The notes beneath the pieces are model-generated. The model was not told where the DNA came from. It did no database searches and saw nothing but the letters and a program-made list of their open reading frames with translations. Source: Gemmatimonadota bacterium (GTDB lineage Bacteria > Gemmatimonadota > Gemmatimonadetes > Palauibacterales > KS3-K002). Taken from it: 64,000 nucleotides of DNA. Every line of letters begins with the position of its first letter. The first letter of the stretch is position 1. The stretch spans positions 1,885 to 65,884 of the forward strand of contig JBDHJU010000040.1 of NCBI GenBank assembly GCA_039586755.1. Direction: 5' to 3'. The translations under genes and the position numbers were made by a program. Of this stretch, positions 6,040 to 23,334 are shown piece after piece.

Positions 6040-6111
6040 TGTACTTCCGCGAGTGGCCGCACCGCGAAACCTCCCCCATTTCCCATTAACGTGCTTCGAG
6101 GGTTGCACTGG

Positions 6112-6603
6112 GTGTCGGACTCTGCCAGGCGCCAGCTACTTGTTGAGGTCGGGGGGTGTCTGTTCGCCGCCGCCCCCGACGAGGTTCGCGAGGTGATGGA
6201 TCGGACCGAGGCGACGCCGGTCCCCGGAGCGATACAGGGTGTGCTGGGTCTTCTGAATCGGCGTGGCAAAGTCATCGTCGCCGGAGAACTGGGTGTGTTC
6301 CTGGGTGTGGACTCGAATCCTGGCGAAGAGTCGGCGCTCGTGGTTTTCGCCGACGGCGATAGGCGGATCGCTTTGATGGTGGACCGGGTGATAGGCATGG
6401 CTCCCTATGCGGGGACCGAGCTCGACGTCGAGAGTGATTTGCTGGAGGCGCTTGGTGCCCGAGAGATGGCGTTAGGAGTGGGGCAGTTCGGGCCGCGGCC
6501 GTACATAAGGCTCGATGTGCCGGCGATCTTCGCACGTGTTTTCGATCAGGCCGGAGACCGTGATCGGTCGATACGGCTCGGATCGACGGTAAGACAGGAG
6601 TGA
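6112..6603 (+). CDS. cheW: CheW-like coupling protein
   Basis: Single CheW domain (LLVEVGGCLFAAAPDEVREV...PGAIQGVLGLLNRRGKVI...ALMVDRVIG). GTG at 6112 follows GAGGG; 6091 and 6103 are alternative starts. The upstream part of the ORF-track entry overlaps rluD. Confidence 0.8.
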   Translation: MSDSARRQLLVEVGGCLFAAAPDEVREVMDRTEATPVPGAIQGVLGLLNRRGKVIVAGELGVFLGVDSNPGEESALVVFADGDRRIALMVDRVIGMAPYAGTELDVESDLLEALGAREMALGVGQFGPRPYIRLDVPAIFARVFDQAGDRDRSIRLGSTVRQE

Positions 6604-6606
6604 TTC

Positions 6607-6969
6607 ATGAGCCGCACGGTGCTGATTGTAGACGACGCGATCTTCATGCGGACGATGATCGCTGACATCCTCAAGGGCGCGGACTTCGAGGTCGTGGGTG
6701 AGGCTTCCTCCGGGGCGGAAGCCGTTGAGAAGTATAAGGAGCTCAAGCCTGATCTGGTGACCATGGACATCGTGATGCCCGACATGGGTGGGATCGATGC
6801 GGTTCGCGAGATCATAGAGTTCGACCCCGACGCCAGGATCCTGATGTGCAGCGCAATGGGCCAGCAGGGTCTGGTGGTCGAGGCCATTCAGGCCGGTGCC
6901 CGAGACTTCGTCGTCAAGCCGTTCCAGCCCTCAAGGGTACTCGAGGCAGTGCAACGCTTGTTGGGATGA
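6607..6969 (+). CDS. cheY: CheY-like single-domain response regulator
   Basis: 120 aa REC domain with the acidic pocket (VDDA), phospho-acceptor Asp (VTMDIVMPDMGG), conserved Ser (MCSAMG) and Lys (VVKPF). Confidence 0.93.
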   Translation: MSRTVLIVDDAIFMRTMIADILKGADFEVVGEASSGAEAVEKYKELKPDLVTMDIVMPDMGGIDAVREIIEFDPDARILMCSAMGQQGLVVEAIQAGARDFVVKPFQPSRVLEAVQRLLG

Positions 6970-8549
6970 GCCAGCAGCAGAAATACGCCGAGCTCTTTGC
7001 AGCCGAGGCGCGCGAGCATCTGGCGGAGATGGGTCGCGCGCTCGTTGCTCTAGAAGAGGAACTGGCAGCGGCGATGGGCTACGAGGTTCCGACACGGCTC
7101 GCCCACAACATTGAGTCGGTGCTCGACGAGTTGAGGTCGGGCAGGCGGAAGGTAGGCGCCAAAGTCGTGGACCTTCTGTTGGAGACTTCCGATCTCCTCG
7201 AGGGTGCGGTCGAGGCTACCGTGGCCGGCAAAACGCCGGCCGATCCGTCTTCTGCGATTGAGCGACTGGTACTCTGGCGACTGGCCGACGAAGGTGTGGC
7301 GCAGCAACAGCCACCGGCGGAGGAAACGAGTGCAGCTGAGCAACCATCGCCGGCGTACGAGGCGCAGCGCGTCGCGGCCCCCACCTCGCGACGCTCAGAC
7401 AGCAGTCGCTTGCGCGTTGACATCCGCCGCCTCGATGCACTGATGAACCTGATGGGCGAGTTGATGATCCTGCGCGGCGAACTGAAAGCCCTGGCGGATC
7501 AGCTGGGCGCCGAGTCGCTTCAGGATGCGGTGGAGCGTGCCGGCAGGTTCATCGGCGAGATGCAGGCGCACGTAGTCGGAAGTCGGATGGTGCCTGTTTG
7601 GCAGATCTTCGATCGTTTCCCGCGCCTGGTGCGCGATGCCTCGCGTTCGGTGGGGAAGGAGATCGAGCTCAAGATTACCGGTAAACAACTCGAGCTCGAC
7701 CGATCACTACTAGATGCTATAAGCGATCCACTCGTTCACCTGCTGCGCAACGCTGTGGACCACGGCATCGAGCCTGCTGAAGAGCGCGAGCGCGCCGGTA
7801 AGCCGCGAGTCGGACGTATCGAGCTCGCTGCCCAGCGCGAGCGCTCGCGTCTGGTGATCACCATCCGTGACGATGGCCGGGGCATCGATCGCGAGGTTGT
7901 GGTCGAAAAGGCCAGGCGCGAGGGGCTTCTGGGGGCCGGCGAGGAACCGACGGACCAGATGCTGTTTCGAATCATGGCGCGACCGGGATTCTCGACGGCT
8001 GCGCAGATTACCACGCTGTCCGGCCGCGGAGTCGGGCTCGACGTCGTCGAGACCACCATCCGGGGGCTCGGTGGCTCGGTCGGCTTCAGGAGCGAGCCAG
8101 GTTCCGGCACTTCGTTCCGTCTCGATCTCCCGCTGACCCTGGCCATCCTGCGCGCTCTGATCGTTGAGGTGGACGGTCAGGTCTATGCCGTACCCGCCAC
8201 ATTCACGCGGGAGAGTTTCGAGGTCGAGGAGGAGGCCGTGGAGCGGGCGCACGGTCAGGAGTGGGTTCACTGGGCCGGCGAGCGCGTGCCTCTGACGCGC
8301 CTGCGGACTCTGTTCAACGGTGGAGAGGGCAACGGATCGTCGAAGGACGGAGTCGGCTTCCTGAATCTCGTCGGTCTCGAGTTCGGGGACTCGCGCATGG
8401 TTATCTCGGTCGACGAGTTCCTGGGCGAAGAGGAAATAGTCATCAAGCCATTCGATCCCCCGCGCGGCGCTGTACCCGTGTTCTCCGGTGCTATCGTCCG
8501 GCCGGATGGACGACCGGCCTTGGTGCTGGACGTCGGTAACCTGTCGTGA
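6966..8549 (+). CDS. cheA: CheA-like histidine kinase with atypical P1 and no P2 domain
   Basis: ATGA overlap with cheY. Has the dimerisation segment RVDIRRLDALMNLMGELMI, N-box HLLRNAVDHGIE, G1 DDGRGID, G2 GRGVGLDVV and a C-terminal CheW-like P5. The N-terminal Hpt-like bundle lacks the HxxKG phospho-His helix (see findings). Confidence 0.9.
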   Translation: MSQQQKYAELFAAEAREHLAEMGRALVALEEELAAAMGYEVPTRLAHNIESVLDELRSGRRKVGAKVVDLLLETSDLLEGAVEATVAGKTPADPSSAIERLVLWRLADEGVAQQQPPAEETSAAEQPSPAYEAQRVAAPTSRRSDSSRLRVDIRRLDALMNLMGELMILRGELKALADQLGAESLQDAVERAGRFIGEMQAHVVGSRMVPVWQIFDRFPRLVRDASRSVGKEIELKITGKQLELDRSLLDAISDPLVHLLRNAVDHGIEPAEERERAGKPRVGRIELAAQRERSRLVITIRDDGRGIDREVVVEKARREGLLGAGEEPTDQMLFRIMARPGFSTAAQITTLSGRGVGLDVVETTIRGLGGSVGFRSEPGSGTSFRLDLPLTLAILRALIVEVDGQVYAVPATFTRESFEVEEEAVERAHGQEWVHWAGERVPLTRLRTLFNGGEGNGSSKDGVGFLNLVGLEFGDSRMVISVDEFLGEEEIVIKPFDPPRGAVPVFSGAIVRPDGRPALVLDVGNLS

Positions 8550-8580
8550 TACGCGGATCCACCAGTGAGGGATGGCGTGA

Positions 8581-9198
8581 ATGAACGCGAAGCGTGAGCT
8601 CCATGACAAAGAGCTTGATGCTCTCAAGGAAGTAGCGAACATCGGCGCAGGCCACGCGGCGACGGCACTAAGCCAGCTGACGAGTCGCCGCATCATGATC
8701 GATGTGCCGAAGGTGCAGATTTGCACCATCGAGGAAGCAGCCTCCGCCGTTGGCGATGGTGGGGTGGTTGCCGCCGTGCTCATGCAGGTGTTGGGTGACC
8801 TGACCGGTCGCAGTCTGTTGCTGTTCGAGAAGAATCTGGCGTTGCAGCTCGCCGACATGTTGCTCACTAGGGAGCCCGGGACGACCAAGGTCTTTGCCGA
8901 GTTCGAGCAGTCGGCGCTCAAGGAGACGGCGAACATCTTGACCGGCGCGTACCTGAACGGGCTGTCCGACATGCTGGGGCTAATGCTGATACCGTCGGTG
9001 CCGAGCCTTGCCATCGACCTCAGCACAGCGATTCTGTCCACGGCCTACCTCGACTTCACCTACGAGCAAGGAAACGTCATCATCCTGGACACGCGGTTTC
9101 GATTCGACCCCGGCGACGCCAGCATGTCGGGTCATTTCGTCTTGTTGCCGGACCCGGCGAGTCTTGAAGTGATACTGAAGGCTGCTCGTTTGCTGTGA
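8581..9198 (+). CDS. cheC: CheC-family CheY-P phosphatase
   Basis: Both ExxN-x22-P active-site motifs are present: KEVAN...(22 aa)...P and KETAN...(22 aa)...P. Confidence 0.85.
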   Translation: MNAKRELHDKELDALKEVANIGAGHAATALSQLTSRRIMIDVPKVQICTIEEAASAVGDGGVVAAVLMQVLGDLTGRSLLLFEKNLALQLADMLLTREPGTTKVFAEFEQSALKETANILTGAYLNGLSDMLGLMLIPSVPSLAIDLSTAILSTAYLDFTYEQGNVIILDTRFRFDPGDASMSGHFVLLPDPASLEVILKAARLL

Positions 9199-11897
9199 AT
9201 AAGACGACGGTTCACTCCGAGGGCGACATTAGCATCCTCCGCGCGCTGGCTCAGCGCATCGATCCGGGGGATGCGGGGGCGTATAACAACCTGGGAGTGG
9301 TGTTCTACCAAAAGGGCCTATACGAGGAAGCGATCGAGCAGTTTCGTCGCGCGCTGGCGATTGATGGTAAGATGGAGGTGGCGCGACGGAACCTGGACAT
9401 CGCCTATCATCAGACGGGCTACTACGATCGTCGTATTGCCGAGCTGATCGCTCGCCTGCGCGCCAATGAGGATGACGACGACGCCCGCTACAGCCTCGCC
9501 GAAGCATACTTCAACACCGGCCGCTTCGACGAAGCCATCGTTCAGTATGAGAAGCTGATCGAGAAAAAGCCCGGCAACGTTCGGGTTCTGTTGAGGCTCG
9601 GTGCCGCCGAGAAGCAACGCGGCGAGTTGAAACGGGCCATTGAATGGTTCGAGAAGGCCCGCGAGCTTCAACCCGACCGCCCCTTCATCTACTATTCGTT
9701 GGGCGAGATCCTCTACAACCAGGGGATGAACGAGGAGGCTATCGCCCACCTCCGCAAAGCGCTGCAGCTGAATCCTTCCGTCGCCGAGGTGCACCACCTG
9801 CTGAGCTTCGTCTACGGCGACATCGGTGCGGCCGATAAGGCAGCCGAGCATGCGGCGCATGCCGCTGAGCTCAACCCGGCGGCCACACGGGTACGGGCGA
9901 ACCTCTCGCTCGATCGTTACAGTCCGGCCCAGTACGTCGAGCTCACCGGTAAGGTGGCTGCGCCGAGCGTCGAGGGGGCAAAGGCGTTTGCGCACTACAG
10001 TTTGGGGATCGCCTTTCGAGCACGCGGACTCTACGAAGAGGCGCGACAAGAGTTCACGCGCGGGCGCGAGGCCGGCGAAGATCCGACCTTGATCGATCAA
10101 GCGGAAGCCGAGTTGGCGCTTCTCGAGGGCGACGCGGAGGGGGCATTGGCGAGATACGATTCGCTACTCGCCAGAGTCAGCAACAGCCCCAAGGTCTGGA
10201 ACGAGCGCGGTGTTACGCTCCACCAGGTCGGACGTCTGGACGAGGCCGAGGAGAGCTACCGTCGCGCCCTGGACCTCGACGAAGGCTACGCTTTGGCCTG
10301 GAACAACATTGGGGTGGCGGCCGCGCACCGCGGCGACCAAGAGAGTGCCGAGGCCGCGTTCCGGCGGGCGCTCGAGATTCAAGCCGAGCTGAACGACGCG
10401 CGACTCAATCTGGGGCTGCTCTGGGTGCTGGCCGATAGGCACGATAGCAGTCTTCAGCTGCACCGCGATATGCTGAAGGTGGATTCGAGTCGTGCGGACG
10501 CATGGAACGGCTTGGGCTCGGCGCTGATGGCTATGGACCGGTTCGCCGAGGCGCGCAACGCGTTTGCGCGTGCCGTGGAGGCAAACCCGAACTTCCCGCC
10601 GGCACGCTACAATCTGAGCTTCGCGCTCGCTCGCCTTGGTGAGCATGAGGATGCCCTGCGTGAGACCAAGATGGCGCTGGAGCTCGATCCGTATTACACA
10701 GCGCCACGCTACAAGCTGTCGATCGATCTGCAGTATGAGGGTGGCGACGTGTGGGCGCCGGAGCTGGCGGCACCAGAACGAGTCGCGCCGAAGGATGACG
10801 GGGTCCGTGATTTCGATTTCGATCCGGCGGAGTTGGAGTCGGTCTTCCACGAACTCGAGGGGCCGGAAGCTGAAGAGAAGGAGGCGGCGCCCAGCGAGAC
10901 GTTCGAGTTGGCTCGGGACCATCTCGCAAACGGCCTCTACGATGGGGCGCTCTCCGAAGCCGCACGAGTTCTGCGCGAGGGTGGCGATGCGGGCGAAGGC
11001 GCGCTGATCATCGGTGAGGTCTATCTGCAGCGCGGGCTCTACGGCGAGGCGCTCGAGCGCTTCGAGGAAGCGCGCGCCCTGCGACCTGACGATCCGCAGG
11101 TACTCGCCGGCGCTACCCGCTGTCTGTTGCAGCTTGATCGCGTCGATGAGGCACGGCTGGCGGCGGAAGCCTTGCAGCCGAAGGCGGGCCAGGATGTCAC
11201 GCATCTGCTGATGGTCGGTGAGGCACTGACCCGGTCGGGCGAAGCGAAACGAGCGATGGAGGTGCTCGACCTGGCGGCGCAGCTTGCTCCGCAGGACCCG
11301 GTCGTGCATCGACAGATCGCCAGGGCCGCCCTAGCGGTGGGCAACCGGCGGCGCGCCCGGGATGCCTACCGAAAGGCGATAGCCGAGGACCCGGACTTCA
11401 CGGCGGCGCGTGTGGAATTCGGGCGCCTGTTGGTCGAAGAAGGTGCGTACAGCGAAGCGGAGGCCGAGATTCGACAGGCCCTCGAGCTCATGCCTACCTA
11501 TGCCGACGGCGCCCTGGTGCTCTCCGATTTGCTGAATCGCCAAGGTCGGGGTCGTGAGGCCGTGAACTTGCTCGTGGGTTTCTTGGAAACCGAGCCGTAC
11601 AACCTCGACGCCCTGGTGCTGCTGAGTGAGGCGTTGCTCGCCGAGGGTAAGCGTCGCGACGCGGAACAGGCGCTCGTTCGAGTGGTGCGCTTCGACCCGG
11701 AGCGGCCCGCCGCGCTGTTTCGCCTCGGAGAGCTCACTGCCGAGTCGGGTCGTTACCGCGACGCGCTCGGCTATTGGCGCCGACTCATAGAGGCGGCTCC
11801 GGATAGCGAGTACGCCGCTCGCGCCCGGGTGCAGGCGCGCGTTGCGTTGGGGATGGGTAGCGCCTTTGAGGGCCAGACAGCAGGGAGCGGTGCCTGA
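9195..11897 (+). CDS. Large TPR-repeat protein (900 aa)
   Basis: GTGA overlap with cheC. TPR-like 34-aa repeats (A..Y..AL.L.P....A..NLG) run along the whole length. No signal peptide or TM segment seen. Confidence 0.8.
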   Translation: MNKTTVHSEGDISILRALAQRIDPGDAGAYNNLGVVFYQKGLYEEAIEQFRRALAIDGKMEVARRNLDIAYHQTGYYDRRIAELIARLRANEDDDDARYSLAEAYFNTGRFDEAIVQYEKLIEKKPGNVRVLLRLGAAEKQRGELKRAIEWFEKARELQPDRPFIYYSLGEILYNQGMNEEAIAHLRKALQLNPSVAEVHHLLSFVYGDIGAADKAAEHAAHAAELNPAATRVRANLSLDRYSPAQYVELTGKVAAPSVEGAKAFAHYSLGIAFRARGLYEEARQEFTRGREAGEDPTLIDQAEAELALLEGDAEGALARYDSLLARVSNSPKVWNERGVTLHQVGRLDEAEESYRRALDLDEGYALAWNNIGVAAAHRGDQESAEAAFRRALEIQAELNDARLNLGLLWVLADRHDSSLQLHRDMLKVDSSRADAWNGLGSALMAMDRFAEARNAFARAVEANPNFPPARYNLSFALARLGEHEDALRETKMALELDPYYTAPRYKLSIDLQYEGGDVWAPELAAPERVAPKDDGVRDFDFDPAELESVFHELEGPEAEEKEAAPSETFELARDHLANGLYDGALSEAARVLREGGDAGEGALIIGEVYLQRGLYGEALERFEEARALRPDDPQVLAGATRCLLQLDRVDEARLAAEALQPKAGQDVTHLLMVGEALTRSGEAKRAMEVLDLAAQLAPQDPVVHRQIARAALAVGNRRRARDAYRKAIAEDPDFTAARVEFGRLLVEEGAYSEAEAEIRQALELMPTYADGALVLSDLLNRQGRGREAVNLLVGFLETEPYNLDALVLLSEALLAEGKRRDAEQALVRVVRFDPERPAALFRLGELTAESGRYRDALGYWRRLIEAAPDSEYAARARVQARVALGMGSAFEGQTAGSGA

Positions 11898-13030
11898 TGC
11901 CGATCGAAGGCTCACTGCGTGAGTTCGCGCTCACCGACATTTTTCAGCTGCTTCACCTGTCCCGGAAGACGGGTGAGCTGAGGATCGTACGTGAGCCATC
12001 GGGCAGCACCGGATTGGTGATATTCAACCATGGGACCGTGGTAGGGACGATCCTCGACGAGGCCAGTCCTCGCCTTGGATACATGTTGCTGAACGCGGGT
12101 AAGATAACCGAGGCGGATCTTCACAGGGCTGATCAGCTCCATTCGGAGGACCCGAGCCGGTCCTGGACGGATATCCTGACATCGATGGAGGTCGTCGAGT
12201 CCTCGGAAATGGACAGGTTCATCCGGTTCCAGGTCGAGGAAACCGCCTACGAGATTCTCGGTTGGGAGGATGGCAAGTTCTCGTTCGAGGAACGCGACGT
12301 CGACGACGCGGAATGTGTCACCCTGATTCCGGTCGAGTCGATCTTGATGGAAGGAGCCCGCCGGGCGGATGAGATGTCGGCGCTGGCCACTACGATCGAG
12401 AGTCCGACCGCCGTACCGCGCTTGTCTGATCGAGCCGGCGAGGGCGGTATGATCGATCTCGCGCCGGAAGAATGGGAGATCCTCGGTCGCATCGATGGCA
12501 CGAGCGACGTCAAATCGATCGCCTGGACCCTGGGCCGCAACGAGGTCGAGGTCAGCAAGATAATTTCGAAGCTCGCGGAGCTGAGCCTGGTCGAGATCGG
12601 CGACGAGGAGGAGATCGCCCGCACCCGACCTCCCCACGAGGTGTCTCTCGATGAGGCGGAGGGTCTGCTGGAGAGCGGCGAGGTGCGCGAGGCGCGACGC
12701 CATATCACGTCGGTGCTGAAGCGACACCCGGAAGAACCGCGTGCACATCTACTGGCGGCCAGGGCGTTGGAGCGATCCGGTGATTGGCTCGGTGCTACCG
12801 AAGCATACGAGAGAACCCTGGCAATCGACCCGTTGGCTGTCGAAGCGCGACAGAGGCTTGGCCTGGTGCGTTTGAAGATGGGGGACATAGAAGGTGCAGC
12901 GCGTGAGTGGACGGCGTACCTGCGAATGGCGCCGGATTCGCTTGACAAGAGCACCGTTAACCGGGCGATAGAGGCCGTGCGCGAACTACAGATCGTTTTG
13001 GACGTGTTGGATGGACGGGAAGACGCGTAG
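11897..13030 (+). CDS. PATAN (DUF4388) domain protein with C-terminal TPR
   Basis: N-terminus IEGSLREFALTDIFQLLHLSRKTGELRI matches the DUF4388/PATAN signature. C-terminus carries TPR repeats. 1-nt TGATG overlap with the upstream gene. Confidence 0.75.
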   Translation: MPIEGSLREFALTDIFQLLHLSRKTGELRIVREPSGSTGLVIFNHGTVVGTILDEASPRLGYMLLNAGKITEADLHRADQLHSEDPSRSWTDILTSMEVVESSEMDRFIRFQVEETAYEILGWEDGKFSFEERDVDDAECVTLIPVESILMEGARRADEMSALATTIESPTAVPRLSDRAGEGGMIDLAPEEWEILGRIDGTSDVKSIAWTLGRNEVEVSKIISKLAELSLVEIGDEEEIARTRPPHEVSLDEAEGLLESGEVREARRHITSVLKRHPEEPRAHLLAARALERSGDWLGATEAYERTLAIDPLAVEARQRLGLVRLKMGDIEGAAREWTAYLRMAPDSLDKSTVNRAIEAVRELQIVLDVLDGREDA

Positions 13031-13817
13031 ATCGCTGCAGAGTCTGAGCGAAGAGGTCGCCACGAACCCGAACTCGACGGCGTTTGTGGAGCTGGCCGCG
13101 GCATACAGGGAGCGTGGCGACAGCGAGCGCGCTCTGCGGCTCTGCCTGCGCGGTCTCCAGCGGCATCCGACACACGTTGAGGCCCATTTCGAGCTCGGCC
13201 TGATATATGAGGCGCGTGGCGAACGGGAGCTGGCGCTGGACGAGTGGGGAATCGTACGGCAGCTAGCGCCAGACCACGTGGCCTCGCGTTTGGCGCTGAT
13301 CCGGCTCTATCTGGACGAGGAGCGATACGTCGATGCGGAGATCGAGCTGAAGGCTGCTCGGGCGCTCGCACCCGCCGACAGTGCGGTCGCCGGGCTGTGG
13401 CAGGCGCTCCAGGCCGCGCAACGCGATGCGGTTCCTGACCAGGCAGGGGGCACCGCGACCGCCGGTCTCTTCGCTGCCCTCGAGAGCGAGCAGCCCGGAA
13501 CGCTCGGGGTGATGCTGGTCGGCGGAGACGGTCAGCTGCTGGAGGGTCGGATGACGCGACGCGGTGCCGAGTCGGATCGGATGCTCGGCGTGACCCTGAA
13601 TGGTGCCAATTCCGAGGCGACGCGCGTCGCGTCTTATCTAGGCTTGGGCGAGTTGCAGGGTATGATCATCGAGAGCGCGGTGGCTCGGCTCACGGTATCC
13701 CCTGTAAGCGATGGGATTGTGATCGTGGCGACGCGCGCTGACGTCCCGGCCGGCCAGGCGGCCCGGCTCGTGCAGCGCGCCCGCGAGATCGCCGAGACTC
13801 ATCTGGGTGACGAATAG
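13011..13817 (+). CDS. TPR - Roadblock/LC7 fusion protein
   Basis: The N-terminal ~120 aa are TPR. The C-terminal ~110 aa (LGVMLVGGDGQLLEG...LQGMIIESAVARLTVSPVSDGIVIVATRADVPAG) have the Roadblock/LC7 pattern. Confidence 0.7.
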   Translation: MDGKTRRSLQSLSEEVATNPNSTAFVELAAAYRERGDSERALRLCLRGLQRHPTHVEAHFELGLIYEARGERELALDEWGIVRQLAPDHVASRLALIRLYLDEERYVDAEIELKAARALAPADSAVAGLWQALQAAQRDAVPDQAGGTATAGLFAALESEQPGTLGVMLVGGDGQLLEGRMTRRGAESDRMLGVTLNGANSEATRVASYLGLGELQGMIIESAVARLTVSPVSDGIVIVATRADVPAGQAARLVQRAREIAETHLGDE

Positions 13818-13819
13818 CG

Positions 13820-14182
13820 ATGAGGACTCCGTACGGGGACCTGTTGGCTAGAGTGATGAGTTCGCCAGGCGTTCGTGGTGCCCTCGTGGTCGCGGTGCGA
13901 GACGGCCTTGTGGTCGACGGTCGTGTGCACGTCGGTGTTGAGGGTGAAGCGGTGGCGGCGCTCGCCGCATCGCTCTACCGCCGCGCTTGTCGAGCGACCG
14001 GCGCCACCGAGGGCAAGGGTCGCTTCGTCGAGCTGGAGGCCGACGGCGGCCGCATCATGATCGCTGGCAAGAACGACCTGGCTATGATGGCGGTCCTCCA
14101 ACGACGCGCGAACGCGGGGCAGGCGCGGGTGGCCGTGCAGCGGGCCGCCGATGACCTGGCGGCGCTGGAGGGGCAGGCGTAG
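13820..14182 (+). CDS. Roadblock/LC7 domain protein
   Basis: 120 aa. VRGALVVAVRDGLVVDG...FVELEADGGRIMIAGKNDLAMMAVLQRRANAG is a typical Roadblock/LC7 fold signature. Confidence 0.72.
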   Translation: MRTPYGDLLARVMSSPGVRGALVVAVRDGLVVDGRVHVGVEGEAVAALAASLYRRACRATGATEGKGRFVELEADGGRIMIAGKNDLAMMAVLQRRANAGQARVAVQRAADDLAALEGQA

Positions 14183-14671
14183 ATGGAGCGCCTGGAAATC
14201 AAGCAGATACAGGACGCCTTCGATGAACCGCTCCGAGTTTTCGTCCGCGAGTCGGGCGTCGGGCTGGCCGTGCTGATCAATCGCAGCGGCCAGGTCCTGG
14301 CGCAGCACGGCTTCGACAAAGTTTTCGACCTCGTCGGTGTCGCGTCGCTCGCTGCCGGTATTAACGCATCGAGTCGCGCCCTCGCGAATCAACTCGGCGA
14401 AGAGCAGTTCGAGCACCTTCACCATGCGGGGCGAGCGCGGCAGCTGTTTCTCGGCCACTTCGACTCGGGCGCCGGACAGCTGATGCTCGTGGCGGTGTTC
14501 GACGACCGCTCGTCCATCGGTCTGGTTAGGCTGTTCTTCGAGCAGTTCGTCGGCGGGATACGGCGACTACCATCGATGGATGCATCGCGAAAGGCTGTGA
14601 GTGCGGCGGAGTTCGAGGCAGAGCTCGAAACAAGCCTCGACAAGTTCTTCCAAGATCTGATAGGCGGCTGA
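14183..14671 (+). CDS. mglB: MglB-like Roadblock/LC7 GTPase-activating protein
   Basis: By-eye alignment to Myxococcus MglB over the full length: AVLINRSGQVLAQHG, SLAAGINASSRALANQLGEEQF, MLVAVFDDRSSIGLVRL. Lies immediately upstream of mglA, as in Myxococcus. Confidence 0.85.
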   Translation: MERLEIKQIQDAFDEPLRVFVRESGVGLAVLINRSGQVLAQHGFDKVFDLVGVASLAAGINASSRALANQLGEEQFEHLHHAGRARQLFLGHFDSGAGQLMLVAVFDDRSSIGLVRLFFEQFVGGIRRLPSMDASRKAVSAAEFEAELETSLDKFFQDLIGG

Positions 14672-14673
14672 CG

Positions 14674-15297
14674 ATGTCGCTCGTGAACTACGCAACACGA
14701 GAGATTACCTGCAAGATCGTCTACTACGGTCCGGGACGGTCTGGTAAGACAACGAACTTGCAGTACATCCACAGTCGCGTCCCTTGGGATCGGAAAGGCG
14801 AGATGGTCTCGCTGGCAACCGAAGCGGACAGGACTCTCTTCTTCGATTTCCTTCCCCTGGAGCTCGGCCAGATCTCCGGGTTCACGACGCGTTTCCAGCT
14901 GTACACGGTGCCGGGCCAAGTCTACTACAATGCGACGCGCAGGCTCGTCCTGCAGGGTGCCGACGGAGTGGTCTTCGTCGCCGACAGCCAGAGGCCGCAG
15001 ATCGATGGTAACATCGAATCGCTGCGCAACCTACACGAGAACCTGCTCGAGCACGGGATCGACATTCGTGACATCCCGGTGGTGATACAGTACAACAAGC
15101 GCGACCTACCTAACGTCTTCAGCATCGAACAGCTGGAGGAGGAGCTGAACTTCAGGAATGTGCCGAGTCATCCGGCGTCGGCACTATTGGGGGAGGGTGT
15201 GTTCGATACACTCAGGTCAGCGAGCGAGGGGGTTCTGAAGAAACTGGCGAGGAAGCTCGAGGTCTCGGCCGCTGACACGATGGGAGAGCCAGGGTGA
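14674..15297 (+). CDS. mglA: MglA-family Ras-like small GTPase
   Basis: Near-colinear with Myxococcus MglA: CKIVYYGPGRSGKTTNLQYI (P-loop), DRTLFFDFLPL (intrinsic Arg), YTVPGQVYY (catalytic Gln), QYNKRDLPN (NKxD). Confidence 0.95.
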   Translation: MSLVNYATREITCKIVYYGPGRSGKTTNLQYIHSRVPWDRKGEMVSLATEADRTLFFDFLPLELGQISGFTTRFQLYTVPGQVYYNATRRLVLQGADGVVFVADSQRPQIDGNIESLRNLHENLLEHGIDIRDIPVVIQYNKRDLPNVFSIEQLEEELNFRNVPSHPASALLGEGVFDTLRSASEGVLKKLARKLEVSAADTMGEPG

Positions 15298-16472
15298 GCG
15301 CTGCCATCGATCCGTCGTTGACCTTCGCCAATTTCGTGGTCGGGCAGGAAAATCGCCTGGCATGCGAGGCGGCGCGCACCGCCTCTGAGTCGCCGGGCTC
15401 TGCCTATAACCCCCTGTTCATCTACAGCGATACCGGTCTCGGAAAGACCCATTTGCTGATCGCGCTCGCCAATCGTGCCAAAGAGTTGCAGCCGGATCTG
15501 AAGGTCGTCTATGTGCCGCTCGAAGAGCTGATGCGGGCGCTGTCCAGCACCGACGACTCCGATTCGTCATACCGGGACGCGGATATCCTCCTGATCGACG
15601 ATCTGCAGTTCATCGGTGACCACCGTCAGGGTCACCAGATACTCTTTCACCTCCTCGATCACCTGCTGATGGCGGGTAAGCAGGTAGCCCTCGCCTGTGA
15701 CCGCCCGCCGTTGGAGTTGGGCGAGCTCGACGACCGGCTGCTGTCACGTTTCAGTGGCGGCCTGGTTGTTGACATAGGGCGGCCGACACTGGAAACGCGA
15801 CGGGCGATTCTAGAGCTGCGTCTTTCCGCCTTTGGCCAGGACCTGAGAGCGGAGGTCGTCGACGCGATCGCGCGGCGCGCGATAGAGAACGTGCGCCAGT
15901 TGAATGGGGCGCTGAACAGAATACTTGCGGCTCAGAGGTCGGAGGGGCGCGAGGTAGAGGCCGATGAGGTGGATCGCCTGCTCGCAGATGTAGTTTCGGA
16001 TGCCGACATGCCGTGGCTGGCCGAAGCGGCGCAGCGTACGGGAGCCGAGTTCGAGGATTTTCTTACCGACGTCTCCAGCGCGGTCGAGGAAGCGCTCGGT
16101 TCTCCGAAATGGCGCGAGGATCTCGCCCGGGCGATCCTCAAATGGGAGGGCGAAGGATACGTTACTAGTCGGCTCGAGTCGTATCTCGAAGGTGATGAGA
16201 CGGTCGACGCCCAAGAGGTGGTTGCCGCCTACGAGCGTGACGTCGCGACGCTCAGATCGATCGAGGAAGAACTGGGCCGGCTCGATGCCGAGGTCCAGGA
16301 CAGTCAGGTCGTGAAGGACCCAGAGCGTATCGAGCAGGCCAGGCAACTGCTGGAGGAAGCGCGCCGTTCCAACCTGGCGGTCGACGATTTCTTCTTCGAT
16401 GATGAGAAGGTTGTCTGGGAGTGGCCGGTAATAGAGGAGCAACTGATGGAGGGCTGGAGCGATGGCTATTAA
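15294..16472 (+). CDS. DnaA-like AAA+ ATPase (domain III only) with an acidic C-terminal extension
   Basis: LTFANFVVGQENRLA, YNPLFIYSDTGLGKTHLL (Walker A), ILLIDDLQF (Walker B), RLLSRFSGGLVVDI and VRQLNGALNRI match DnaA/Hda domain III. No domain I and no domain IV helix-turn-helix. GTGA overlap with mglA. Confidence 0.8.
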   Translation: MSAAIDPSLTFANFVVGQENRLACEAARTASESPGSAYNPLFIYSDTGLGKTHLLIALANRAKELQPDLKVVYVPLEELMRALSSTDDSDSSYRDADILLIDDLQFIGDHRQGHQILFHLLDHLLMAGKQVALACDRPPLELGELDDRLLSRFSGGLVVDIGRPTLETRRAILELRLSAFGQDLRAEVVDAIARRAIENVRQLNGALNRILAAQRSEGREVEADEVDRLLADVVSDADMPWLAEAAQRTGAEFEDFLTDVSSAVEEALGSPKWREDLARAILKWEGEGYVTSRLESYLEGDETVDAQEVVAAYERDVATLRSIEEELGRLDAEVQDSQVVKDPERIEQARQLLEEARRSNLAVDDFFFDDEKVVWEWPVIEEQLMEGWSDGY

Positions 16473-18093
16473 AGGCAGCCTTAAAGAAGCCAGCCTGCCT
16501 GATGTTCTCCAGCTCCTCACCATGGGAGGTAAGACGGGCTGCCTATCTGTCACGGACCGGCAGAGCTTCGGTTACATCTATTTCGAGGAAGGCCGGATTA
16601 TCTACGCCTCGCTGCTCAATCGACGCGACCGGATCGGGGATATCCTGGTGCGGGAGGCTGTGATTTCGCGTGAACAGTTGGACGCAGCGATCGAGGAGCA
16701 GAGTGCCACTCGCGACGGCCGACGCTTGGGCGAGATCCTCAAAGACAGCGGGTATATCGAGCAGGACACACTGCACAGGTGGGTGCGCTATCAGATCGAG
16801 GAGGCAGTGTACCACCTGTTCACCTGGAGCCAGGGCACGTTCTACTTCGAGCCGGGCCAGCGCCCCGATCGGGAGCAGATACTGGTCTCGATCGACCCCG
16901 AGAGCCTGTTGCTGGAGGGAGCGCGGCGAGTTGACGAATGGAGCCAGATAGAGAAGAAAGTCTCGTCGCTCGAGTTGGTCTTTTCGTTGCACCCTGAGCG
17001 GTCACAAGCGATATCGTCGCTCAACCTCACCGAGGAACAGCAAAAGCTACTCCCGTTGCTGGATGGTAAGCACAGCGGTTGGGACATCATCGAAGAGACC
17101 GCGCTGGGTGAGTTCGAGGTAGGTAAGGCGCTCTTCGGTTTGGTGACTGCCGGGTTGATCCGCCGGGTTGGAAGGCGCGAACGGAAATCTCCGCGGGCCG
17201 AGGCTCGGGCCAGGGTGAATGAGCACCGTAACCTGGGTGTGGCGTTCTACCGAACCGGAATGTACGACGAGGCTGTACGTGAGTTGAGGCAGGTGCTCGA
17301 GCTCGAGCCCGAGGCACTGGATGCCGAGTTCTTCTTGGGGCTCGTGGCACTCCGCCGCGGTGACCTGGATGCGGCCGAGAAGAAGTTCGTCGAGATCATG
17401 GAGGCCGGCGCGGTCCAACCCGCGCTATACAACGACCTCGCCCTAGTGCTGGCGGGCCAGGGCAAACTGGGGCAGGCGGCAGCGCTGCTCGACGAGGGAC
17501 TCGAGAAGACCCAAGCTCACCCGAAGCTTCTGCTGACAAAGGCTGTGTGCCAGTTGAAGCTAGGCGATTCCGCGGCATCGAAGAGCACACTCGACGCTTT
17601 CGCAGCGGTCGCGAGCGGGGAGTTGCCGCCTCTGTACTACTCGACGCGCGCGCTGGCCGAGGCGATGTCAGCCGACCTGGATTCGGCGGCTGAGATGGCG
17701 GCCGAAGGTGTGGAACGGCATCCGAGCTCGGCAGCGCTTGCCAACAACGCCGGCGTGATCATGGAGAGGAAGGGCGACCTGGAGGGTGCCCGGGTGCTGT
17801 ACGAGAAGGCGTTCGAGCAGGACTCGGCGCTCCCACAAGCGTCCAAGAATCTGGGTGACCTTCTGTATCGAGAGGGCCTGTACGACAAAGCTGCCGAGGC
17901 CTACAAGCGGGCACTGCGTGCCAACCCGAATCTCGGAGACGACGTGTACGCCAAGCTGGGCAACGTCTACTACAAAGGGCGCGATCGCGAGAAGGCAGTC
18001 GAGATGTGGAGGCGAGCGCTTGAAATCAACCCCGCCAACGAGGTCGTGCGCACGAACCTTGAATTCGTGAAGGGCGATGCCGGCGACGGGTGA
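16462..18093 (+). CDS. PATAN (DUF4388) domain protein with C-terminal TPR array
   Basis: N-terminus IKGSLKEASLPDVLQLLTMGGKTGCLSV...IYFEEGRIIYA is the DUF4388/PATAN signature. The ~300 aa C-terminus is TPR. Confidence 0.78.
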   Translation: MAIKGSLKEASLPDVLQLLTMGGKTGCLSVTDRQSFGYIYFEEGRIIYASLLNRRDRIGDILVREAVISREQLDAAIEEQSATRDGRRLGEILKDSGYIEQDTLHRWVRYQIEEAVYHLFTWSQGTFYFEPGQRPDREQILVSIDPESLLLEGARRVDEWSQIEKKVSSLELVFSLHPERSQAISSLNLTEEQQKLLPLLDGKHSGWDIIEETALGEFEVGKALFGLVTAGLIRRVGRRERKSPRAEARARVNEHRNLGVAFYRTGMYDEAVRELRQVLELEPEALDAEFFLGLVALRRGDLDAAEKKFVEIMEAGAVQPALYNDLALVLAGQGKLGQAAALLDEGLEKTQAHPKLLLTKAVCQLKLGDSAASKSTLDAFAAVASGELPPLYYSTRALAEAMSADLDSAAEMAAEGVERHPSSAALANNAGVIMERKGDLEGARVLYEKAFEQDSALPQASKNLGDLLYREGLYDKAAEAYKRALRANPNLGDDVYAKLGNVYYKGRDREKAVEMWRRALEINPANEVVRTNLEFVKGDAGDG

Positions 18094-18886
18094 TGACACC
18101 GCTTATGCTGCACTGTTCGCGAAGATCGAGCGCGAGCGGGGCTTTCGTGGGAATCTCTACCGGCAGAAGTGCTTGCGCCGTAGGGTCGGCGTACGGATGC
18201 GCGCTCGCGGTCTTACGAGCATCGATGACTACTCGGCGCTGCTCGATACCGATCCTGCCGAATACGACTGGCTTCTGCGCGCCCTGACCATCAACGTCAG
18301 CAAGTTTTTCCGCAACAAGGAAACGTGGGACGTTATCGGCAACGAGTTGCTGCCAGGGCTGCTGGCCCGGGGGGAGCCGGTTCTTCTGTGGAGCGCCGGA
18401 TCGGCGGCCGGCGAAGAGGCGTACAGCCTGGCGATCCTGGTGCGGGAGCGACTGGCGGCCGGCGGGCAGTGTGAGGTGAACGGTGTGCGTATCATCGGTA
18501 CCGATATCGATGAGGATAGTCTCGAGCTCGCCCGCTCGGCGGAATACCCGGAGGTCGCCCTGGTCGAGACACCGGAGGAGGTTCGGCGACGCTGGTTCGT
18601 TCCCGGGCCCATGAACCGGCTTAAGGACCCGATACCTTCTATGGTGGAATTCCGAAAAGTCGACATCCTGGAAAGCAGCCCGGATTTCGAGGCGGATCTC
18701 ATCCTCTGCCGTAACCTGCTCATATACCTGGACCGACCGGCCCAGGGCCGTGTCTTCGAGATGTTTGTCGATGTTTTACGACCGGGGGGCTACCTGGTAT
18801 TGGGCCGGGTGGAGATGCTCGGCCGGGAGGTGAAGGAGCACTTCGACGTGGTTGACGGGCGAGAGAGGATATACCAGCGGCGGTGA
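18077..18886 (+). CDS. cheR: CheR chemotaxis methyltransferase
   Basis: FFRNKETWD, the SAM-binding LLWSAGSAAGEEAYSLAI, and DLILCRNLLIYL. Confidence 0.9.
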   Translation: MPATGDDTAYAALFAKIERERGFRGNLYRQKCLRRRVGVRMRARGLTSIDDYSALLDTDPAEYDWLLRALTINVSKFFRNKETWDVIGNELLPGLLARGEPVLLWSAGSAAGEEAYSLAILVRERLAAGGQCEVNGVRIIGTDIDEDSLELARSAEYPEVALVETPEEVRRRWFVPGPMNRLKDPIPSMVEFRKVDILESSPDFEADLILCRNLLIYLDRPAQGRVFEMFVDVLRPGGYLVLGRVEMLGREVKEHFDVVDGRERIYQRR

Positions 18887-19359
18887 GGATCTTCGTTCCG
18901 ATGGGCGATCGTCGCGTTGGTCAGGGCGAGGGGACGCTATCGATCACAGGCCTAGGCTCTTGTGTGGCGATCGTTTTGTACGATGAGGCGAGCCACGTGG
19001 GGGGCCTGGCACACGTGCTCCTGCCGGACCGCTCTTTCTCGAAGCGCGACCGCTGCTGGCTGTTCGTGACGGAGGCCGTCCCGGCGCTGCTCGATGAGCT
19101 GGCGGAAGCCGGGGCCGTGCGTAGTCGTCTCACCGCACGGCTGGTTGGTGGTGCCGCCATGTTTGAGGACCTGGCGCCGCAGGACAGGCCTAACATCGGC
19201 CGGCGCAACATCTCGGCGGCGCGAAAGGTGCTCGCCAGGGTTGGGATCCCCATCGTCGCCGAGGATGTGGGCGGCGGTTTCGGCCGCTCGATCGACTTTG
19301 AATTGTCGAACGGTCGTATAGTTGTCACCTCGCAGGGGAAGAGCCGTGTCGAAATCTGA
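18883..19359 (+). CDS. cheD: CheD chemoreceptor glutamine deamidase
   Basis: ITGLGSCVAIVLYD...GGLAHVLLP carries the catalytic Cys/His context. 158 aa. GTG at 18883, or ATG at 18901. Confidence 0.88.
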   Translation: MRIFVPMGDRRVGQGEGTLSITGLGSCVAIVLYDEASHVGGLAHVLLPDRSFSKRDRCWLFVTEAVPALLDELAEAGAVRSRLTARLVGGAAMFEDLAPQDRPNIGRRNISAARKVLARVGIPIVAEDVGGGFGRSIDFELSNGRIVVTSQGKSRVEI

Positions 19360-20434
19360 GCGCGGCGCATCCGGCAGCACCGTCCTGGTGGTAGATGACA
19401 GTGTGTTCATGCGGCGCATGATCTCGGACATGATCGATCGCTTCCCTGGGTTCCACGTGGCGGGTACAGCGTCCGACGGTAAGGAAGCATTGCGGCGCAT
19501 AGAAGAGCTCGCGCCCGACGTGGTGACGCTAGATATCGAGATGCCGCGTCTCGATGGGTTCGGTGTGCTCGAGCGCGTCATGTCGACACGACCGCGGCCA
19601 ATCGTAGTCTTCTCGGCCTACACCGATACCGGATCGACTGCTGCGCTGCGGGCACTCGATCTCGGCGCCGTCGACTTTGTAGCCAAGCCCTCAGGACCGA
19701 TTTCCTTCGACCTCGGCCGAGTGGAAGCACGGCTTTACGAGGCTTTGCGGGCCGCAGTGGCCGCAGATGTCGAGGTGCTGATCGCCGAACGGACGTTGGA
19801 GGCCGAACCTGTGGTCGCCCCAGTCATCGGCGGCGAAGCGGCGGTGGCCATCGCCGCTTCCACCGGGGGGCCGCGGGCGCTTTCACAGGTTCTCCGCGCC
19901 TTACCTTCCGACCTGGGTGCAGCGGTGCTCATCGTTCAGCATATGCCGCCGGGTTTCACATCGACGCTGGCGGAACGCTTGAGCGGCTTGGCGTCGCTAC
20001 CAGTGGAGGAGGCGAGTGGGGGTGAGACCGTAAGGCCGGGCCGGGTCTGGCTCGCTCCCGGCGACTTCCACATGCGGGTGAGGCGGATCGACGGGACGGT
20101 GAAGATCACGCTCGATCAGCGCGAGTCGATGTGGGGCACGCGACCGGCGGCAGACGCACTCTTTCCAAGCGTCGCCGAGGCCTTCGGGGGTCGCTCGGTG
20201 GGCGTTGTGCTGACCGGTATGGGTCGAGACGGTGCCAACGGTCTGGCGGCGATCCGGGCGAGCGGCGGTCGAACGATAGCCCAGGACAAGGCGACCAGTG
20301 TTGTCTACGGGATGCCCGGTCGCGCCGTGGAGCAGGGAGCGGCCGAACACATTGTCTCTCTGGACGGGATAGCGGGTGCCATCGTCGAGTGCCTCGCTGA
20401 ACTTCCGGCCCGCGAGGCCGACGCGAGCCAATGA
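19346..20434 (+). CDS. cheB: CheB methylesterase (REC + esterase)
   Basis: REC domain (VLVVDDS, VTLDIEMP, FVAKP) plus esterase Ser (ASTGGPRAL), His (VQHMPPGFT) and Asp (GMGRDGA). GTG at 19346 is preferred over the TTG at 19322. Confidence 0.9.
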   Translation: MSKSERGASGSTVLVVDDSVFMRRMISDMIDRFPGFHVAGTASDGKEALRRIEELAPDVVTLDIEMPRLDGFGVLERVMSTRPRPIVVFSAYTDTGSTAALRALDLGAVDFVAKPSGPISFDLGRVEARLYEALRAAVAADVEVLIAERTLEAEPVVAPVIGGEAAVAIAASTGGPRALSQVLRALPSDLGAAVLIVQHMPPGFTSTLAERLSGLASLPVEEASGGETVRPGRVWLAPGDFHMRVRRIDGTVKITLDQRESMWGTRPAADALFPSVAEAFGGRSVGVVLTGMGRDGANGLAAIRASGGRTIAQDKATSVVYGMPGRAVEQGAAEHIVSLDGIAGAIVECLAELPAREADASQ

Positions 20435-21405
20435 GCAACCTGATCACGTTCCGATTGGGCGATTCGCGGTTTGCGATCCCGGCCGACGTGGTAACCGAGA
20501 TCGTCGAGGCCGGCTCGATCGAGCACCGCCTGCCTGGGGACAAGGGTGCCCAAGTTGGTCTGGCCCGCGTCCGCGACCGCTGGATACCTGTGGTCGAGCT
20601 GGCCGGCGCCATCAGCGGCGTGCCGAGTTTGGATCCGGATTCACCGGACGCATTGCTGCTGGTGCTGGGCCGGGAGCGTGGCCGGTTGGGCCTGCGAGTT
20701 CAGGGCCCGGGCGAAGTCGTCCAGGGAAGGGCGGCACGGTCGCCAAATGACCGGTCGGATGACTTGCTCGAGCTAGATGGTGAGATGGTCCGTTTTGTCG
20801 ACCCGGCGGCGCTTGTCGCTTCTCGGGCCGAGCTGCTTGGAGAGAAGGGAGAATCCATGGTGGATCGAGATGTCGCTGCCGAGCCGCTGCGCGTGGTGAG
20901 GTTCCAGCTCGGCGACGACGAATTCGGTATCGATGTGATGAAGGTCTTCGAGGTGATTCCGGTGCCGAAGGTGCGCCCCGTACCCAAAGCGCCCGCCTTC
21001 GTCGAAGGTGTCGTCGACATTCGCGACTCGATTGTCCCGGTAATCGACATGCGCAAACGCTTTAGTCTGCCGCCGAGAGAAACGGACGAGTCCAGCCGGC
21101 TGCTGATTGTAGCGATCGGCGAATCCCGGGCCGGTTTGGTCGTCGACACGGTTCCCGGCGTGGTACCTTTAGCCGAAGACGCGGTGAGCACGCCGCCTGA
21201 CTTCTTCCGCGGCTTGGCAGGAAGGTACCTCGAAGGTCTCGCTAAGGACGATGATCGCATGATCATCATGCTCAACGTCGGCGAAATTCTCAGCTCGAAG
21301 GAGAAGATAGCCCTCGAGAAGGTCGTCGATTCCGCGAAGCCCGCAGGCCGCGCCAAGGGTAAGAAGCGCGCGCCGCGGCGCAGCAAGAAGAAGTCGGAAG
21401 GTTGA
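20431..21405 (+). CDS. Tandem CheW-CheW coupling protein with a polybasic tail
   Basis: Two CheW domains (ITFRLGDSRFAIPADVV... and VVRFQLGDDEFGIDVMKVFEV...VEGVVDIRDSIVPVIDMRKRF). C-terminal tail is AKGKKRAPRRSKKKSEG. Confidence 0.85.
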   Translation: MSNLITFRLGDSRFAIPADVVTEIVEAGSIEHRLPGDKGAQVGLARVRDRWIPVVELAGAISGVPSLDPDSPDALLLVLGRERGRLGLRVQGPGEVVQGRAARSPNDRSDDLLELDGEMVRFVDPAALVASRAELLGEKGESMVDRDVAAEPLRVVRFQLGDDEFGIDVMKVFEVIPVPKVRPVPKAPAFVEGVVDIRDSIVPVIDMRKRFSLPPRETDESSRLLIVAIGESRAGLVVDTVPGVVPLAEDAVSTPPDFFRGLAGRYLEGLAKDDDRMIIMLNVGEILSSKEKIALEKVVDSAKPAGRAKGKKRAPRRSKKKSEG

Positions 21406-23239: not shown

Positions 23240-23284
23240 GTTTGGGCGGTTCAAGACCCGAAATCTTACGCTTGGCAAGAAGAC

Positions 23285-23304: not shown

Positions 23305-23334
23305 AGAGCATATTGGGCGGAGGACCAGGACAGC

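Follow-up and report, generated by a model that had tools for sequence, protein, structure and literature searches.

The window analysed here, a stretch of 64,000 nt from contig JBDHJU010000040.1 of a Gemmatimonadota bacterium (assembly GCA_039586755.1), carries on its forward strand a gene for a 392-residue protein that lies between mglA, encoding a small GTPase, and a gene for a protein with PATAN and TPR domains (Table 1). The 392-residue protein joins a DnaA-type AAA+ domain to an acidic C-terminal tail, and it is near certain that it is a DnaA paralogue in which the AAA+ domain III has been kept and domains I, II and IV have been lost. The gene overlaps both of its neighbours. Its GTG start (15294-15296) shares two bases with the mglA stop codon TGA (15295-15297), giving GTGA and a 4-nt overlap, and at the 3' end its last 11 nt overlap the ATG-started PATAN-TPR gene (16462..18093). 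Both overlaps had been described in an earlier reading of this DNA made from the sequence alone (the sequence-only reading), and both were confirmed in the sequence. A Shine-Dalgarno-like GGGAGAG is found about 10 nt 5' of the GTG. Since this GTG is the first start codon downstream of the in-frame stop, a hidden N-terminal domain is impossible, and residue 4 of the protein aligns with the start of domain III, in line with the earlier claim that the protein begins directly at domain III and lacks domain I. Purifying selection was observed on every part of the gene, with a ratio of non-synonymous to synonymous substitution rates (dN/dS) of 0.07-0.10 for the whole gene when compared with orthologues at dS 0.5-0.9; the dN/dS values given below for separate segments refer to the same range of orthologues.

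The AAA+ domain was identified by profile and by structure. Pfam Bac_DnaA (PF00308) matches residues 6-160 over model positions 2-162 of 162 with 159 bits (E 1.5e-46), the gathering threshold being 23 bits, and TIGR00362 (DnaA) aligns residues 4-238 with model positions 103-343 of 437 at 248.7 bits, below the cut-off of 343.9. The top match by sequence among solved structures is Bacillus subtilis DnaA (residues 111-373), and the AAA+ domain is about 39-40% identical to domain III of that protein. In an AlphaFold2 (AF2) model of the full protein, built on an alignment of 109 orthologues, the AAA+ part has a predicted local distance difference test score (pLDDT) of about 77-88, and Foldseek superimposes it on B. 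subtilis DnaA (8bv3_A; TM-score (TMt) 0.91, root-mean-square deviation 2.0 Å) and on Thermotoga maritima 2z4r_A (TMt 0.91). The initiator-specific insertion, between the P-loop strand and Walker B, is modelled as two short helices (H76-84 and H89-94).

All the motifs of the DnaA domain III signature quoted in the sequence-only reading were found in the product, and they are strongly conserved. SDTGLGKT answers to the Walker A consensus GxxGxGK[ST] of AAA+ ATPases except for its first residue, LLIDD to Walker B (hhhhDD), RLLSRF to the arginine-finger box and NVRQL to sensor II with its arginine. Among the 109 orthologues, G48, G50, K51 and T52 of Walker A, D102 and D103 of Walker B, and R148, S151, R152 and F153 of box VII are invariant, as are D136, P138 and P139; in sensor II, V200, Q202, L203 and G205 are invariant and R201 is kept in at least 90%. 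By alignment with B. subtilis DnaA, R148 is the counterpart of the DnaA oligomerisation arginine and R152 that of the arginine finger; in Escherichia coli DnaA these are R281 and R285. With a dN/dS of 0.05-0.12 for the AAA+ part (0.05-0.09 in the comparison of segments), the residues for ATP binding, hydrolysis and the arginine finger are under selection, and the domain is predicted to be catalytically competent.

The tail (residues 234-392) contains 42 Asp and Glu against 15 Lys and Arg, has an isoelectric point (pI) of 4.05 and is mostly helical in the AF2 model. The earlier description of an acidic helical tail of about 150 residues thus held as to charge and helicity; the tail is not, on the other hand, a featureless extension but is modular, with a first conserved motif (motif 1), a helical bundle of about 90 residues and a second conserved motif at the C-terminus (motif 2). 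In motif 1, E252, F256, V260 and V264 are invariant in the 109 orthologues, and the linker that holds it has a dN/dS of 0.00-0.07. In motif 2, D364, E371, K372, W377 and P378 are invariant in a 19-sequence alignment (A1); in the 109-sequence alignment (A2) D364 and W377 alone are invariant and E371, K372 and P378 are kept in at least 90%. The dN/dS of motif 2 is 0.03-0.05 and that of the helical module 0.11-0.17. The two segments that AF2 could not fold (pLDDT <50) are, by dN/dS, the most constrained parts of the gene. Such constraint on motifs without a modelled fold is expected of peptides folding upon a partner, and motifs 1 and 2 are probably peptides of this kind.

No known domain was recognised in the tail: Pfam and NCBIfam (both at E<=10) and a profile search of all PDB sequences gave only noise, Bac_DnaA_C was unmatched even at Pfam E<=10, and a model of the tail by itself had zero fold matches when compared by Foldseek with the PDB at E<=0.001. 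With these results and the pI of 4.05, a cryptic DnaA domain IV, or another known domain, was rejected, and the earlier statement that domain IV has been replaced stands. Because the operon contains cheR, cheB and cheD and no receptor gene, the stretch SAVEEALGS in motif 1 was also considered as a CheR/CheB methylation site; this was dropped, as the EE pair is missing from the tandem variants and from the small open reading frames (mini-ORFs) described below.

Among 5.8 billion proteins searched, more than 100 full-length orthologues (about 390 residues, 49-93% identity) were found, and those with names all come from metagenome-assembled genomes of Gemmatimonadota. Members of the family are labelled 'ATP-binding protein' or 'DnaA/Hda family protein' by NCBI, and often 'chromosomal replication initiator protein DnaA' by JGI. 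In gene maps of six diverse members (390-652 residues) the operon order is kept wherever the contig reaches (contig L006 begins at the gene), and in other loci the ends of the called genes are spaced from their neighbours by anything from a 17-nt overlap to a 7-nt gap. Genes for an MglB-like protein and for Roadblock proteins precede mglA in related loci.

To this were added two counts of the neighbourhood. When the tail profile was run against a collection with one genome per species, 157 stretches were confirmed; the best 80 were analysed as loci, and all of these are from Gemmatimonadota, five complete chromosomes among them. Wherever the position could be tested in these loci, the gene is directly preceded by mglA (74 of 74) and directly followed by the PATAN-TPR gene (75 of 75); a second DnaA-type match is absent from all of them (each locus up to about 20 kb). 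Because this test was anchored on the 392-residue gene itself, a reverse test anchored on MglA was also run: of the metagenome loci picked via MglA alone and having enough downstream sequence, 60 of 69 carry the DnaA-like gene directly after mglA. The DnaA-like gene is thus an obligatory neighbour of mglA and of the PATAN-TPR gene, and is translationally coupled to them. The gene had been called an orphan, which does not hold for a large conserved family; the co-occurrence with mglA, which the sequence-only reading had proposed to look for in other genomes, was found from both directions, and the lack of linkage to mglA in other genomes that the same reading had named as refuting it is clearly contradicted.

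One of the metagenome contigs with a related MglA (L154:5001-6248), which has a low GC content (0.51), is probably from another phylum. Its MglA, 65% identical to that of the window, forms the N-terminal part of a 415-residue ORF and is followed by an MglB-like gene and a PilB-N-terminal-like protein, and no DnaA-like gene is present.

Two variants of the architecture occur in the same operon. The Gemmatimonadaceae form has about 640 residues and consists of a first AAA+ domain (AAA+1), motif 1, the helical module, a second DnaA-type AAA+ domain (AAA+2) and motif 2, which remains the extreme C-terminus despite the second AAA+ domain inserted before it. This tandem form accounts for 50 of the 80 genome loci (L010-L089) and is abundant in soil metagenomes; examples are L002:2651-4570 and L008:10001-11959. 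Both of its domains have a full-length initiator-specific motif, and both mostly retain the catalytic motifs in 125 tandem variants, with the Walker A lysine of AAA+2 present in 120. A role for AAA+2 as a dead regulatory domain, suggested by proteins P0111 and P0117 (GVGVTHL, NVAEL), was rejected as a general rule on this count; a small subclade (5/125) lacks both the Walker A lysine (GVGVTHL) and the sensor II arginine in AAA+2. The domain of the window protein is 44-46% identical to AAA+1 and 33-37% to AAA+2, and all three are 36-43% identical to B. subtilis DnaA. AAA+1 and AAA+2 are 34-39% identical to each other. Judged by these identities, the duplication is old.

The second variant came from the reverse test. 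In eight of the nine MglA-anchored exceptions, which are metagenome contigs, the same operon is present with no AAA+ gene, and an ORF of 72-83 residues occupies the roughly 220 nt that separate mglA from the PATAN gene. This ORF begins 3-5 nt past the stop codon of mglA and runs up to the start of the PATAN gene. Its N-terminal part resembles motif 1, with the pattern (G)GEFADF[LM]AD[VI]SxEIAxRVESL, its C-terminal part resembles motif 2, with G[LVM]I[VL][ED]WxN[VI][VA]DR[LMI]IEE[MIV]R, and the two are joined by a Pro/Lys-rich linker. The mini-ORFs are matched by the tail profile in collinear order, with 9-22 bits; among 400 shuffles the highest score was 8.1 bits. Since slot, order and coupling are identical, homology of the mini-ORF to tail motifs 1 and 2 is probable, and the mini-ORF seems to encode a micro-protein partner of the Mgl module that annotation has missed. 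Motifs 1 and 2 would then constitute a separable, putative docking core that is able to exist without the ATPase. In the same lineage the downstream PATAN-TPR protein has no PATAN helical insertion (about 54 residues) and lacks the last TPRs; this co-loss is suggestive, in that it fits a contact between the parts lost on both sides.

The tail profile also reached outside the operon. It matched 317 cluster representatives among 1.84 billion, some of which carry 4-12 tandem copies of the helical module, and judged by these repeats the module of about 90 residues is a repeat unit in its own right. Five giant proteins (P0125, P0151 and P0270-P0272; 1250-1390 residues) have 6-8 copies of the module followed by a Bac_DnaA AAA+ domain, and two of the five are placed by NCBI in Thermoplasmata or Thermoplasmatota archaea. 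C-terminal double zinc-ribbon matches were obtained in P0151, P0271 and P0272 and none in P0125 and P0270. The archaeal relatives share with the window protein both the Bac_DnaA-type AAA+ domain and the helical module, but differ from it in size, in having the modules N-terminal to the AAA+ domain and in being encoded by stand-alone genes. An association with GTPase or Roadblock genes in archaea was checked at three loci and rejected, as GTPase, Roadblock, PATAN and Che genes are absent from all three neighbourhoods; motifs 1 and 2 were not found in the giant proteins by regular-expression search. The tail defines at least one new domain family, which occurs in archaea as well. The occurrence of a DnaA-type domain in Thermoplasmatota archaea is unexpected in itself.

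Table 1. Features of the DnaA-like gene, of its operon in the 64-kb window and of related loci. Positions without a locus name are those of the window; L and P numbers are our handles for loci and proteins.
Feature	Position	Strand	Basis or remark
DnaA-domain-III-plus-tail gene	15294..16472	+	GTG start, 392 aa, stop included
DnaA-type AAA+ domain (ATPase core and lid, residues 4-238)	15303..16007	+	TIGR00362, Foldseek, AF2
Walker A / P-loop, S45-D-T-G-L-G-K51-T52	15426..15449	+	read from sequence
Initiator-specific motif region, residues 76-94	15519..15575	+	alignment with B. subtilis DnaA
Walker B, I-L-L-I-D102-D103-L-Q-F	15585..15611	+	read from sequence
Box VII, DDRLLSRFSGGLVVD	15729..15773	+	aligned with B. 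subtilis DnaA EDRLRSRFEWGL
Sensor II / box VIII, NVRQLNGAL	15888..15914	+	conservation in 109 orthologues
Motif 1, residues 250-270, GAEFEDFLTDVSSAVEEALGS	16041..16103	+	low AF2 confidence, pLDDT <50
Helical-bundle module of ~90 aa, residues 271-360	16104..16373	+	pLDDT 80-95 in tail-only model
Motif 2, residues 364-392, DDFFFDDEKVVWEWPVIEEQLMEGWSDGY, acidic C-terminal WxWP peptide	16383..16469	+	pLDDT <50
cheW, cheA, cheC/cheX (operon head)	5920..9198	+	same order in L001, L008
900-aa TPR protein	9195..11897	+	
PATAN (DUF4388) + TPR protein, upstream copy	11897..13030	+	
TPR + Roadblock protein	13011..13817	+	
Second Roadblock/LC7 protein	13820..14182	+	Robl_LC7 36.4 bits
MglB-like Roadblock protein	14183..14671	+	Robl_LC7 30.6 bits; NF052242 MglB 49.4 bits, cut-off 200
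mglA-type small GTPase	14674..15297	+	Arf and small_GTP matches; coupled to 392-aa gene downstream
PATAN (DUF4388) + TPR protein	16462..18093	+	coupled to 392-aa gene upstream
cheR, cheD, cheB, double-CheW gene (operon tail)	18077..21405	+	same order in related loci
Archaeal loci	L004/L005:8001-11747 (P0125), L170:8001-11741 (P0272), L171:8001-11801 (P0271)		
Mini-ORF loci	L131, L149, L150, L152, L153, L158, L163, L166; e.g. L158:2284-2535, L153:5610-5828		

In the window the gene is part of a co-directional cluster that starts with the che head genes and continues with TPR, PATAN and Roadblock genes, mglA, the 392-residue gene, the PATAN-TPR gene, cheR, cheD, cheB, the double-CheW gene, a TPR gene and a peptidase gene; a division and cell-wall cluster (mraW-ftsI-mur-ftsW-ftsA) follows. 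The earlier proposal of a DnaA-derived ATPase in a polarity/chemosensory module is supported by this MglA/MglB-PATAN-TPR-Che operon and the coupling of the gene on both of its sides. Neither dnaA nor dnaN is among the genes of the 64-kb window. No chemoreceptor (MCP) gene was found in the operon (5920-21405) or elsewhere in the window, and the substrate of CheR, CheB and CheD is therefore not evident.

Outside proteins of replication (DnaA itself, its inactivator Hda and, more distantly, helicase loaders), DnaA domain III is hardly known. DnaA domains I and II mediate helicase and regulator binding, and domain IV is the helix-turn-helix that binds DnaA boxes. The protein described here resembles DnaA in its homologous AAA+ domain III, with shared Walker A, Walker B, box VII and sensor II motifs, and differs from it in having none of domains I, II and IV, a shorter initiator-specific motif, a new acidic tail and a gene placed in a polarity/chemosensory operon rather than beside dnaN or an origin. 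What is new is thus the architecture, its context, the two architectural variants and the archaeal connection, the domain itself being familiar. The helicase loaders and transposase helpers of the IstB/DnaC/DnaI group belong to the same AAA+ initiator/loader clade, and there is a weak match to Pfam IstB_IS21 (24.7 bits); a function as an IstB/IS21 helper was rejected, since this match is marginal and lies under that of Bac_DnaA and no IS21 transposase or helicase gene is found nearby.

Across the phylum, a DnaA-type ATP switch is thus conserved between the genes for a Ras-like GTPase and a PATAN/TPR scaffold in a chemosensory operon. MglA regulators outside Myxococcus are, to our knowledge, poorly known. 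We tentatively favour, with somewhat less than even confidence, the interpretation that the protein is an ATP-switched, self-assembling adaptor of the MglA/MglB-PATAN-TPR module. It would be a stoichiometric subunit of this polarity/chemosensory module, with motifs 1 and 2 docking to the products of neighbouring genes, for which MglA (upstream) and the PATAN-TPR protein (downstream) are the candidates; the acidic C-terminal peptide of motif 2 would be suited to binding in a TPR groove. DnaA in its ATP form oligomerises head-to-tail by way of the box VII arginine, and the AAA+ domain of the adaptor may bind ATP and assemble head-to-tail via its arginine finger in a similar manner. ATP binding would then cluster the docked partners and hydrolysis would release them, so that ATP-timed clustering would act as a second switch besides the GTP-dependent one of MglA. 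In Gemmatimonadaceae a chain with two AAA+ domains would do the same; in one lineage just the docking motifs are left, in the form of the mini-protein. An ATP-dependent assembly factor for the TPR/PATAN scaffold, as proposed in the sequence-only reading, would be compatible with such an adaptor.

Several observations weigh against the adaptor. In the clade of the window protein the first glycine of the P-loop is replaced by serine. The initiator-specific motif has 6 residues fewer than that of B. subtilis DnaA, so a DnaA-like filament geometry may not hold. The partners of the two motifs are guessed from gene order alone. We infer the interactions, the ATPase activity and the oligomerisation, and the structure models are monomeric. 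The homology of the mini-ORFs consists of short motifs with modest scores plus positional equivalence, and the co-loss of mini-ORF and PATAN-TPR parts is a single evolutionary event. Finally, pilus genes are absent from the 64-kb window, and the operon may act on pili, flagella, division or another process.

The closest functional parallel to an adaptor of this kind is found in Myxococcus xanthus, where RomX, a small adaptor and exchange factor acting with RomR, positions MglA by linking its GTP-bound form to a receiver-type domain; one of the interfaces contains a conserved tryptophan (bioRxiv 10.1101/2024.02.20.581209). Further, TPR proteins such as SgmX are effectors of MglA (PMC11580455). 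The analogy with RomX is functional only, that of a small helical adaptor to which the mini-ORF variant is similar in size; RomX has no ATPase, in contrast to the 392-residue protein, and no similarity to it was detected in the PDB-sequence profile search or by Foldseek at E<=0.001, in a library in which the RomX entry 8ZNA is unconfirmed. Wuichet & Sogaard-Andersen 2015 (PMC4316618) place group 1 MglA in Gemmatimonadetes and describe an occasional PATAN neighbourhood of mglA/mglB; a DnaA-like neighbour did not surface in a term search of that paper, 'DnaA' not being among the terms. Our literature searches found no paper that links a DnaA-like protein to MglA.

If the adaptor interpretation is true, this would be the first replication-initiator ATPase reused for cell polarity or signalling, and the GTPase switch of MglA would gain an ATP-driven layer. 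Tandem AAA+, single AAA+ and motif-only mini-protein form a natural series that offers a ready-made dissection of the functions of the parts. A bolder version, which we regard as unlikely, is that the initiator's self-assembling ATP switch has become a central component of a Ras-like-GTPase polarity oscillator, that a DnaA-type ATP-dependent oligomer serves as a polar landmark or timer for MglA, in the place that RomR/RomX take in Myxococcus, and that the combination of AAA+ domain and helical repeat arose in, or was exchanged between, Bacteria and Thermoplasmatota. It would, if true, point to a class of DnaA-derived machines without a role in replication that spans both domains of life and has so far gone unrecognised.

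As the nearest rival interpretation, the protein could instead be an ATP-powered remodeller, in which hydrolysis pulls apart or resets MglA-MglB or MglA-effector complexes and thereby times polarity switching. We consider this quite unlikely, albeit the hydrolysis motifs are conserved and not just those for binding, the tandem form recalls two-ring or paired AAA+ remodellers, and the coupling to mglA is close. The nearest structures are those of DnaA domain III and not of unfoldases, and members of the AAA+ initiator clade (DnaA, Orc/Cdc6, DnaC) are ATP-dependent switches that form open spirals, with no pore loops and no closed threading rings. The evidence presented here does not separate remodelling from scaffolding.

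The same domain might also still bind DNA, single-stranded or duplex, through its initiator-specific motif and so tether the cytoplasmic chemosensory/polarity complex to the chromosome, in a manner recalling FrzCD of M. xanthus, which uses the nucleoid as scaffold. In the alignment, the B. subtilis residues I190 and K222 that contact single-stranded DNA correspond to L83 and H110. Throughout the family the second of these positions stays H, K or R and the first stays hydrophobic; both speak for such tethering, as do the full-length initiator-specific motif of the tandem relatives and the lack of a membrane receptor (MCP) gene in the operon. Tethering is nevertheless improbable for a protein without domain IV that is acidic throughout (pI 4.39 overall, 4.86 for the AAA+ part and 4.05 for the tail), whose clade has the motif shortened by 6 residues, and whose place is filled in one lineage by a mini-protein without any AAA+ domain.

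A link to replication might be kept in another way, as in Hda, to which the sequence-only reading had likened the protein: its arginine finger would stimulate ATP hydrolysis by DnaA, or the protein would cap DnaA oligomers, coupling initiation to the polarity and chemosensory state; this would be the link to the cell cycle proposed in the sequence-only reading. Like Hda, it is a DnaA-family AAA+ protein with an intact arginine finger and no DNA-binding domain, confined to domain III in its conserved architecture and putatively acting through protein contacts, the identity to DnaA domain III would permit hetero-oligomers, and the operon is always just upstream of the mraZ/dcw division cluster. 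Membership of the Hda family was nevertheless rejected, and with it the likeness. The Hda model (TIGR03420) scores 91.5 bits against a cut-off of 194.8, the profile and structure comparisons suggested along with the sequence-only reading thus pointing to DnaA (Bac_DnaA, TM-score 0.91) and not to Hda; Hda structures rank far behind DnaA in Foldseek, at about 20% identity as opposed to 39-40%; and the N-terminal clamp-binding motif of Hda, of the type QL[SD]LF or QLxLx[LF], was not found in the 392-residue protein by regular-expression search. The protein further differs from Hda in 160 extra C-terminal residues and in its genomic context, which has nothing of replication, the gene lying between mglA and the PATAN-TPR gene at every testable locus. 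The fact that an AAA+-free mini-protein can fill this slot argues that the conserved job concerns the Mgl module and not DnaA, and an Hda-like regulator is distinctly improbable.

That the gene is the real replication initiator of the organism, as the frequent JGI name would have it and as might be read from the lack of a separate dnaA among the matches listed (the best 120 protein matches are all family members), or that it is a decaying dnaA pseudogene, is all but refuted: domains I and IV are absent with no room for them in the ORF or downstream, the TIGR00362 score stays below its cut-off, the NCBI names avoid the term initiator, an architecture that varies between single, tandem and mini-ORF forms would be intolerable for an essential initiator, and a pseudogene is excluded by the strong purifying selection. 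Since the DNA-binding domain is missing and the architecture varies, and from general knowledge, the gene is presumably not the only DnaA homologue of its genome. The many database entries named 'chromosomal replication initiator protein DnaA' need correction, and could mislead the prediction of origins in Gemmatimonadota.

Some further observations were made in the window. After the Che/Mgl operon, positions 21402-27478 hold a TPR protein, a peptidase_MA_2 gene and another TPR protein, followed by mraZ/mraW and the dcw cluster; the same order of TPR, peptidase_MA_2 and TPR genes leading to dcw was seen in distant relatives (L001:16525-21185 and L003:9052-13476), showing that this neighbourhood is conserved as well. 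The helical insertions of the two PATAN domains (residues ~56-108 of the product of 16462-18093 and ~58-110 of that of 11897-13030) contain two tandem stretches, RIGDILVREAVISREQLDAAIEEQ and RLGEILKDSGYIEQDTLHRWVRYQ. These resemble RLGxxLLxxGLLxxxxLxxxLxxQ, the cyclic di-GMP-binding motif of MshEN domains; in a Pfam search the region of the insertion was assigned to DUF4388 itself and T2SSE_N was unmatched. Within the dcw cluster, an 812-residue ORF (36297-38735) contains both a MurG-type glycosyltransferase (Glyco_transf_28) and a complete Mur ligase and appears to be a murG-murC fusion.

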